Part shown: positions 49,310-49,951 of the stretch, one piece after another | How the letters are laid out: each line of letters begins with the position of its first letter | Position numbering within the stretch: the stretch's first letter is position 1 | NCBI GenBank assembly: GCA_020724955.1 | Contig: DYFY01000002.1 | Coordinates: 28,864 to 92,863 of the forward strand | Source: Candidatus Parvarchaeum sp. | GTDB lineage: Archaea > Nanobdellota > Nanobdellia > Pacearchaeales > GW2011-AR1 | Direction: 5' to 3' | Length of the DNA stretch: 64,000 bases | The notes under the pieces: generated by a model | What the model was told of the DNA's origin: nothing | Database searches by the model: none | The model's input: only the letters and a program-made list of their open reading frames with translations | Position numbers and translations under genes: made by a program

Positions 49310-49951
49310 ATGGTTGCTGAAGGCACAAGAAATCTTCAACAAATGTATCAGCAAAGGCCACCGGATTTTATAGAATTGTTGAGAAAAAAAGACGAACATG
49401 CATTCGCTTTCCTGTATGAAAAGCTTAAATTTCTTTGCTCGGTGGTAAGCCGAAGACGAGGATATTTTTCACCAGAAGATGTAATTCAGGAAACTATGGT
49501 TAGGTTATTGGAAACAGGCATTGATACTTACGATCCTAAAAAATCTAGAGGTCTTGACAATTGGCTGTTAAAAATAATATCCAACAAGTTAGTAGACATG
49601 GCCAGAAGTTCAAAAAATGCCATGTCTTTAGACAGAAGACTTTCTGAAGAAAGAAGCTTTTATGAAACAACTCTCCCTTCGGGTTATAAAAGCTCAGAAC
49701 AAGAGGATGCGCCCCATGAAATGTCAGAATTGATAGCTGAAGCCTATAAAGAAAAACTTCTTTTTATAGATGAATTTGTTCTGAGATATGTATTTGGACT
49801 AGATTATGAAGGAATATCATTAATTTTTGGGATACACCCTGTCACAGCCAGAACCAGAGTTCACGCTGTAAAAAAAAGATTAAAGAAAATGTCAGAATCT
49901 CCCGAGAGAGAACAACATGCAGAACTCTCTGATTTGTCGTCCGCTATTTAG
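49310..49951 (+). CDS. Sigma-70-family (ECF-like) protein
   Basis: Region 2-like EDVIQETMVRLLE...WLLKIISNKLVDMAR; region 4-like FVLRYVFGLDYEGISLIFGIHPVTARTRVHAVKKRL. Confidence 0.55.
   Translation: MVAEGTRNLQQMYQQRPPDFIELLRKKDEHAFAFLYEKLKFLCSVVSRRRGYFSPEDVIQETMVRLLETGIDTYDPKKSRGLDNWLLKIISNKLVDMARSSKNAMSLDRRLSEERSFYETTLPSGYKSSEQEDAPHEMSELIAEAYKEKLLFIDEFVLRYVFGLDYEGISLIFGIHPVTARTRVHAVKKRLKKMSESPEREQHAELSDLSSAI

Follow-up and report, generated by a model that had tools for sequence, protein, structure and literature searches.

The open reading frame considered here lies between ftsZ and the deoxyhypusine synthase gene (dys) on contig DYFY01000002.1 of Candidatus Parvarchaeum sp., within a window of 64,000 nucleotides that comprises the whole stretch of DNA analysed. 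An earlier note, made by reading this stretch alone, had placed an intact sigma-like gene between these two genes; the frame is indeed complete, and Pfam profiles confirm the identity of both flanks (Table 1). The ends of the frame and of dys overlap by 8 nt (49944-49951).

Table 1. Features of the ftsZ/dys locus, with positions given in the window
Feature	Position	Strand	Description
ECF-type sigma-70 family gene	49310..49951	+	ATG-to-TAG ORF, 213 aa; sigma2, linker and sigma4; without sigma1.1 and sigma3
sigma2 domain	49415..49615	+	Pfam match to residues 36-102; bundle of residues ~2-104 in the model
sigma2 domain motifs			ED.IQE helix, sigma2.2; YDP...W...N...D..R, sigma2.3/2.4
Flexible inter-domain linker	49622..49711	+	residues ~105-134; pLDDT 50-67, below 50 at 127-132
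sigma4 domain	49712..49894	+	residues ~135-195; HTH GIHPVTARTRVHAVKKRL (sigma4.2)
Short C-terminal helix past sigma4	49901..49945	+	residues 198-212, pLDDT 65-71; last codons overlap the dys 3' end
ftsZ	48145..49227	-	divergent from the ECF gene; Tubulin 155.6 bits, FtsZ_C 111.6 bits
Deoxyhypusine synthase (dys)	49944..50966	-	convergent with the ECF gene; DS 375 bits
TATA box TTTAAATA	49278..49285	.	in the 82-bp ftsZ/ECF intergenic region; near-palindromic
ftsZ Shine-Dalgarno (GGAGGT)	49238..49243	-	ACCTCCTTTCA, conserved in 16/16 loci

The three segments from which a sigma region 2 and a region-4 helix-turn-helix had been read, EDVIQETMVRLLE, WLLKIISNKLVDMAR and YEGISLIFGIHPVTARTRVHAVKKRL, are all present in the translation, and profile searches bear out the assignment, with both of the Pfam models that the earlier note had named for checking exceeding their curated cut-offs. 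With 38.6 bits, Sigma70_r2 clears its cut-off of 24, and it is matched over profile positions 2-69 of 71, which disposes of the possibility that region 2 would give no significant hit. Sigma70_r4_2 scores a marginal 28.3 bits against 25.7 (residues 156-191), and this sigma4 assignment is backed by the full-length match to the NCBIfam model TIGR02937 sigma70-ECF (50.3 bits, cut-off 42.9, residues 31-193). The next NCBIfam models are those of single ECF sigmas (SigW, SigY, SigM, SigE and others), each far under its equivalog cut-off, and the Pfam search of the protein returned no match to Sigma70_r3 or r1. Among PDB sequences the top match by phmmer is Bacillus subtilis SigW (5wuq, E 3e-7), followed by Mycobacterium tuberculosis SigE. 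The AlphaFold2 model, built with 42 sequences as input (mean pLDDT 82.6, pTM 0.71), agrees: one helical bundle is predicted for residues ~2-104 and another for ~135-195, on either side of a disordered linker, with a short helix at the C-terminus. The leading Foldseek matches to this model in the PDB are sigma factors exclusively, with the ECF members first (SigW, E 6.5e-5, then sigmaE, SigE, SigH, AlgU and CnrH); the TM-scores reach just 0.4-0.57 because the relative orientation of the sigma2 and sigma4 domains differs. The linker is the most variable stretch both in the alignment of the protein with bacterial ECFs and in that of the syntenic archaeal copies described below. The frame encodes an intact group-4 (ECF) protein of the sigma-70 family.

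Sigma factors define bacterial transcription, and archaea are by textbook account sigma-free. We note that the source genome, of Pacearchaeota/Woesearchaeota type within the DPANN archaea (735 kb in 22 contigs, 87% complete, 0.7% contamination), encodes TBP, TFB and one Rpb1-type polymerase locus, and that a bacterial alpha-CTD was not found in this 87% complete genome or in two congeners; the only transcription apparatus visible in the source genome is archaeal. The neighbours of the ECF gene are likewise archaeal or eukaryote-type (DUF424, aIF-1A, a KRR1/PNO1-type KH protein and deoxyhypusine synthase), and the FtsZ of the window is 81-90% identical to the FtsZ of 80 MAGs named Pacearchaeota, Woesearchaeota or Nanoarchaeota, so that the description of the chromosome as archaeal stands. 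A chimeric contig, which would have undone the observation, and contamination are both ruled out: GC is flat across the locus (0.368 for the ECF gene against a genome gene median of 0.385), codon usage is native (the fit of the ECF gene falls at the 51st percentile among the genome's 470 genes), the gene order is repeated in 10 other species, and an independent assembly from the same population contains the same 6.6 kb at 100% identity. Further contigs with an identical ECF protein are also 100% identical as DNA and so are uninformative about variation from strain to strain. The source genome has, on another contig, one more sigma-like gene, which belongs to the group-1-3 type.

To call such a gene unexpected in an archaeon, as the earlier note did, is an overstatement. 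Sigma-70 genes (fam00359) were described in DPANN archaea by Castelle et al. 2021 (PMC8204110), with a prevalence in Woesearchaeota; these authors excluded mis-binning, did not find anti-sigma factors and called the mechanism unclear. Our survey agrees with theirs, in that at least one Sigma70_r2 gene occurs in 129 (43%) of the 300 high-quality phylum genomes sampled and in 19 of 41 relatives, with up to 7 such genes per genome, many of them within much longer open frames.

A protein search of 40 relatives with the window ECF found nothing, and the syntenic copies were detected solely by Pfam profile and comparison of loci. Among 80 ftsZ loci, dys adjoins the ftsZ locus in 15 species; ten have an ECF-like ORF in between, always in the same position and orientation and at E 1e-9 to 1e-34 against the ECF profile, and five have none. 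The two congeners illustrate both states: in one, where Sigma70_r2 gives a weak match beside dys, the order is ftsZ(-), a 215-aa ECF-like ORF(+) and dys(-), and in the other ftsZ and dys are directly adjacent, 90 bp apart, with no ECF. A tree built from the flanking genes places the species with an ECF at scattered positions within a clade of 99% support, and about 3-5 changes are needed to explain their distribution, for which an ancestral gene followed by several losses would be the simplest account. The ECF gene is dispensable, with losses in at least 3-5 lineages, and the slot is lineage-specific and optional.

The occupants of this slot share little sequence. Pairwise identity among the syntenic ECFs is 15-32%, as compared to 84-96% for FtsZ and 60-90% for deoxyhypusine synthase; in one pair, for instance, FtsZ is 96%, deoxyhypusine synthase 83% and the ECF 17% identical, and a within-genus pair of ECFs could not be aligned by BLASTP (E = 16). 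The syntenic neighbours that are shared are 46-90% identical (MnmA, a nitroreductase and an MBL hydrolase within 46-73%), and the ECF gene is the sole syntenic gene without any BLAST hit. Genome-wide, identity across 287 reciprocal-best-hit pairs with a congener has its median at 62.6%, its 1st percentile at 27% and its lowest value at 25.5%; the divergence of the ECF lies beyond the entire detected distribution of orthologue pairs. Evolution at this speed makes relaxed constraint and adaptive change hard to tell apart.

One way to account for such divergence would be that the ECF engages a fast-evolving target, such as a virus transcription factor or a host-cell component, and serves as a decoy or specificity factor in a virus-host or symbiont-host conflict instead of as a housekeeping regulator. 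Besides a divergence in excess of all 287 detected pairs, its varying presence among close relatives would suit this, as would the family-level match of phage sigma families (phrog_1740, a generic phage sigma family in PHROGs, scores 46.7 bits against the window ECF) and the rpoS-like sigma genes reported in 2025 in viruses and prophages of DPANN archaea (PMC12647753). Against it, PADLOC gave no match and neither defence nor mobile genes lie beside the ECF gene, and we consider a role of this kind quite unlikely. A reading of the locus as a defence system was rejected for want of a PADLOC hit.

Alternatively, the gene might be the slowly decaying relic of an old transfer, functionless and drifting under weak or no selection. 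Its repeated loss and extreme rate of evolution are what decay would produce, and no partner is in view, be it an anti-sigma factor or a bacterial core polymerase. The frames themselves argue otherwise, and we hold this to be very unlikely. All 11 syntenic copies are open (183-215 aa, with one shortened to 128 aa), and the chance that a random frame of 213 codons is free of stops at this base composition, calculated from GC, is ~3e-7 for each. Their profile scores still reach E 1e-9 to 1e-34, their signature residues are conserved, the AlphaFold2 model is a confident one, and the genome in which the gene persists is strongly reduced. Retention in a streamlined genome of 735 kb, together with the occurrence of such genes in 43% of 300 genomes of the phylum, speaks for a useful family.

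Conservation among the syntenic copies centres on three segments, namely ED.xQE (sigma2.2), YDP...TW...D..R (sigma2.3/2.4) and Y..G...IPLGT.KSRL (sigma4.1/4.2), within which Q60 is invariant and R99, Y160, G163, T179 and K181 are nearly so; D57, Q60, W85, I89 and N92 of the window ECF are invariant or nearly so in comparison with bacterial ECFs. In bacterial sigma factors the sigma2.2, sigma2.3/2.4 and sigma4.1/4.2 segments contact the beta' clamp helices and the -10 and -35 DNA elements. The survival of these signature segments against a background of saturating change is the main clue to function.

The origin of the gene is best approached through its nearest relatives, which are distant. 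In a word-indexed search of 5.8 billion clusters the window protein matched just itself, and in an exhaustive phmmer search of 1.84 billion representative proteins the best match (P0002) was 34% identical (E 6e-10); P0002 is an orphan too, with relatives in Bacteroidota at 25-35%. There were ~310 remaining matches, and among the 150 listed nearly all are ECF-sized and 24-40% identical. The named matches are bacterial ECFs, the nearest named genomes being Bacteroidia, Methylotenera and Pirellulaceae, where identity is 31-39% and the matches cover part of the sequence. When a profile was built from the syntenic copies, its next matches were bacterial ECFs of the ordinary kind in classical settings, and immediately downstream of one of these lies a zf-HC2 anti-sigma gene. 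The suggestion that the gene was horizontally acquired is probably true as far as it goes, but the acquisition would be ancient, as the native codon usage and the slot common to 10 other species indicate, and the phylogeny that was to reveal a donor lineage names none because the window copy is without a close homologue, the best among 1.84 billion representatives being 34% identical.

Whether the slot was filled once or many times is a separate matter. A weak split in the unconstrained tree sets nine of the ten syntenic copies together, and the window copy lies apart from them, in an unresolved bush of bacterial type. This arrangement would be expected if the dys/ftsZ slot were a recombination hotspot, into which unrelated ECFs have repeatedly been imported from other DPANN, viruses or bacteria, with occupants that are not orthologues and the window copy as a separate arrival. 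BLAST fails to relate the occupants to one another even inside a single genus, the gene content upstream of ftsZ is variable (DHH, RNase_T, dys and ECF are each present or absent), and the DPANN viruses and prophages with rpoS-like sigma genes (PMC12647753) could be a source. A first AU test, which rejected monophyly of the syntenic copies (p 0.008), was discarded since the database sequence P0173 is a near-orthologue of one of them. With P0173 removed, a single clade of the ten syntenic ECFs is not rejected (p-AU 0.82), nor are clades in line with the species tree (p 0.86 and 0.76), and the constrained trees reach a likelihood above that of the free search. Moreover, with leave-one-out profiles most occupants score higher against the profile of the other occupants than against a bacterial ECF profile; for the window copy this comparison is uninformative, the bacterial set being its own best hits. 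The orientation and both junctions are identical across species, the codon usage of the ECF gene is native, and no repeats, integrase or tRNA mark the dys/ftsZ slot. Repeated import into a hotspot seems to us fairly unlikely on this evidence.

We therefore prefer one old acquisition followed by divergence in place and by losses, as suggested by the AU tests that do not reject one clade and by the leave-one-out profiles. The profiles weakly favour a common family for most of the slot copies. The window copy scores 55 bits against the syntenic profile, no better than against general ECF profiles (TIGR02937, 50 bits), and it is possible that it was replaced by a different ECF; exchange of the cassette is likewise possible, particularly for this copy.

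The signals around the gene are those of an archaeal locus. The centre of the TATA box lies ~28 nt before the ECF ATG, and the box lies 51-58 nt before that of ftsZ. The CTTTAAATAWTTGA motif is kept in 15 of 15 related loci, and its presence also in those that lack an ECF indicates that it is primarily the ftsZ promoter; in most of the other species the ECF gene has an additional A/T box of its own, 24-33 nt before the ATG. No Shine-Dalgarno sequence precedes the window ECF gene. Its upstream geometry would fit an archaeal promoter, possibly a bidirectional one, with a leaderless mRNA. The shared intergenic region holds no conserved DNA motif besides the ftsZ TATA box and Shine-Dalgarno sequence, and a common ECF promoter motif is not to be expected anyway, given how far the syntenic sigmas have diverged.

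A cognate anti-sigma factor, usually co-transcribed, is typical of ECFs though not universal. The search for one, which the earlier note had proposed, came back empty: no zf-HC2 anti-sigma domain was matched in the source genome (87% complete), and no small protein with a ZAS motif was found there, the hits to the HxxxCxxC pattern being a small membrane peptide and spurious ORFs. At the locus itself the ECF gene and dys converge with overlapping ends, which leaves no room for a co-transcribed anti-sigma gene.

Taking these observations together, we lean, with slightly better than even confidence, towards a domesticated and dispensable sigma-derived regulator that works in the archaeal cell through its sigma4 helix-turn-helix, through docking of sigma2.2 on the clamp coiled-coil, or through both. 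On this account a bacterial ECF gene would have been acquired once by the ancestor of the subclade and then have descended vertically, diverging very fast and being lost several times. Specific DNA would be read by the sigma4 helix-turn-helix, and possibly by sigma2 as well, and/or the conserved sigma2.2 helix would dock onto the clamp coiled-coil of RNA polymerase. This coiled-coil is structurally common to the bacterial and archaeal polymerases. The outcome would be a modulation of TBP/TFB-dependent initiation at a small, species-specific set of genes, which may include the divergent ftsZ, and the ECF would be controlled via its own transcription and not via an anti-sigma factor. Among the three readings that the earlier note put forward, that of a repurposed DNA-binding regulator fits best.

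A bolder version is that the ECF-like proteins of Pacearchaeota confer promoter specificity on the archaeal RNA polymerase or help it to initiate, docked by sigma2.2 on its clamp coiled-coil and redirecting it to species-specific promoters, in which case their divergence would reflect rewiring or conflict with viruses or the host cell. We rate this as unlikely, and include it since, were it true, a bacterial-style sigma cycle would have been grafted on a TBP/TFB system. In a variant the proteins would be delivered to the polymerase of a partner cell.

The remaining suggestion, that of a factor aimed at the polymerase of a bacterial partner, supposes that the ECF is handed on to a bacterium living with the archaeon and there redirects the RNA polymerase as a true sigma. 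All residues typical of core- and promoter-binding ECFs are retained, the archaeon itself is without a detected bacterial polymerase, and host manipulation would suit the fast evolution, which is the one feature here that lends the suggestion support. Yet the N-terminus, MVAEGTRNLQQMYQQRPPDF, has no hydrophobic stretch like that of a signal peptide, no secretion genes lie near the ECF gene, nothing ties the lineage to a bacterial host, and the known hosts of cultured DPANN are archaea. We regard an effector of this sort as highly improbable.

That intact ECF genes are kept in the smallest archaeal genomes, with neither bacterial polymerase nor anti-sigma factor, has been a published oddity since 2021. 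Returning to the domesticated regulator that we favour, the dys/ftsZ slot provides a natural experiment by which such ideas can be pursued, with a fixed site, a gene present or absent in close relatives and invariant flanks, and the few conserved residues of the ECF point to the surfaces that would still be in use. If the ECF acts on the archaeal polymerase, the two initiation systems are combinable; if it is merely a DNA-binding regulator, archaea have domesticated one more bacterial-type regulator.

In comparison with the bacterial ECFs of known structure, such as SigW (5WUQ/5WUR), E. coli sigmaE/RpoE (1OR7/6JBQ) and M. tuberculosis SigE and SigH, the window ECF has the same sigma2 and sigma4 domains in ~200 aa, and shares with them the DxxQE and YDP...W...N...D..R motifs and the sigma4.2 helix-turn-helix. 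It differs in that its gene belongs to an archaeon for which no bacterial core polymerase is in view, in having no co-transcribed or detectable anti-sigma factor, in an identity of at most 34% to any bacterial ECF, and in being preceded by an archaeal TATA box, apparently for a leaderless mRNA, where a bacterial ECF would have its autoregulated -35/-10 promoter. Virus-encoded sigma factors (PHROG 1740 and the rpoS-like genes of DPANN viruses) offer a likeness at the family level and a further case of sigma genes outside a bacterial chromosome, but the window gene sits among core genes of the cell, and neither viral nor integrative genes lie close to it. A further parallel is with the DPANN sigma-70 genes of Castelle et al. 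2021, which likewise sit among archaeal genes, with TBP and TFB alongside and no anti-sigma factor detected. Their study established the presence of the family; what is added here is the fixed slot between dys and ftsZ, the fact that it is optionally filled, the rate of divergence, the promoter and the predicted structure. The window ECF is a sequence-orphan addition to this published DPANN phenomenon, and its slot, rate, promoter and structure contribute useful detail to it and not a new category.

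The congener whose ftsZ slot, the site between ftsZ and the deoxyhypusine synthase gene dys, holds no sigma-like gene nevertheless encodes an ECF-like protein at another site, close to a contig end and away from the slot (genome G001; Table), and loss of the slot gene therefore leaves that species still with an ECF. In two related genomes of lower quality (G028 and G015), an open frame matches the alpha-CTD domain of bacterial RNA polymerase; contamination by bacterial contigs or the borrowing of helix-hairpin-helix (HhH) domains may account for these matches.

Beyond dys, the window carries an RNase_T/DEDDh exonuclease gene, which also matches the PADLOC model "DEDDh, CAS-associated" at 66 bits and was not found in the related loci within the retrieved ±3-kb stretches; in several of these, the MBL hydrolase gene is instead separated from dys or ftsZ by a putative DHH-family gene of about 364 aa. 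This position looks like a second variable slot of the same neighbourhood. Two retrieved loci, L085 (VGJV01000002.1) and L121 (DAOTCN010000001.1), belong to CPR bacteria according to the titles of their records, "Candidatus Liptonbacteria bacterium" and "Candidatus Paceibacterota bacterium". Their FtsZ proteins share 81-85% identity with the archaeal FtsZ of the window. The contigs measure 123 kb and 389 kb, and the two records are probably mislabelled Pacearchaeota bins. Elsewhere in the window, the end of a SET-domain gene and the start of the gene for MnmA, a bacterial-type tRNA 2-thiouridylase, overlap by 71 nt; the true overlap may be shorter, because the independent gene call in L165 puts the MnmA start further downstream and yields a protein of 353 aa vs the 369-aa ORF of the window.

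Features in the window, the source genome (G000) and related genomes (other G numbers; L, retrieved loci)
Feature	Location	Strand	Detail
SET-domain protein gene	window 45900-46448	+	91 bits
MnmA gene	window 46378-47487	+	236 bits
RNase_T/DEDDh exonuclease gene	window 51094-51732	+	between dys and MBL-fold hydrolase gene
Second sigma-like gene	G000 contig 8, L001:1342-2007	+	221 aa; Sigma70_r2 match
ECF-like gene	L010 (G001:C7:6745-8745), ORF 1459-1965	+	168 aa; 107 bits, bacterial ECF profile
Alpha-CTD match	G028:C12:4028-4204		73 bits; 427-aa open frame
Alpha-CTD match	G015:C11:16596-16766		48 bits; 172-aa open frame
Sigma70_r2 match, long frame	G269:C26:9597-9806		phylum survey
Sigma70_r2 match, long frame	G191:C9:16198-16404		phylum survey
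Sigma70_r2 match, long frame	G201:C1:838906-839118		phylum survey

Many of the Sigma70_r2 matches in the survey of the archaeal phylum lie inside open frames of 400-1000 aa, a length that suggests multi-domain proteins with a sigma2 module as their base. Tandem arrays also occur; G191:C6 and G235:C3, for instance, each carry three matches within some 2 kb. The source genome itself has a second sigma-like gene, flanked by genes for a UvrD/PD-(D/E)XK nuclease and a metallophosphoesterase; its relatives in other Pacearchaeota are often 300-700 aa long. Region 2 of its product (segment DLFQEGNTGLMRAIQKYD...; Sigma70_r2, 65.4 bits) resembles that of group 1-3 sigma factors, and region 4 is weak at 18.7 bits, under the cut-off. 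The protein scores 114.9 bits against phrog_351, "RNA polymerase sigma factor", and 65.4 bits against the PADLOC model MzaA, where the match is to the sigma2-like part of the model.
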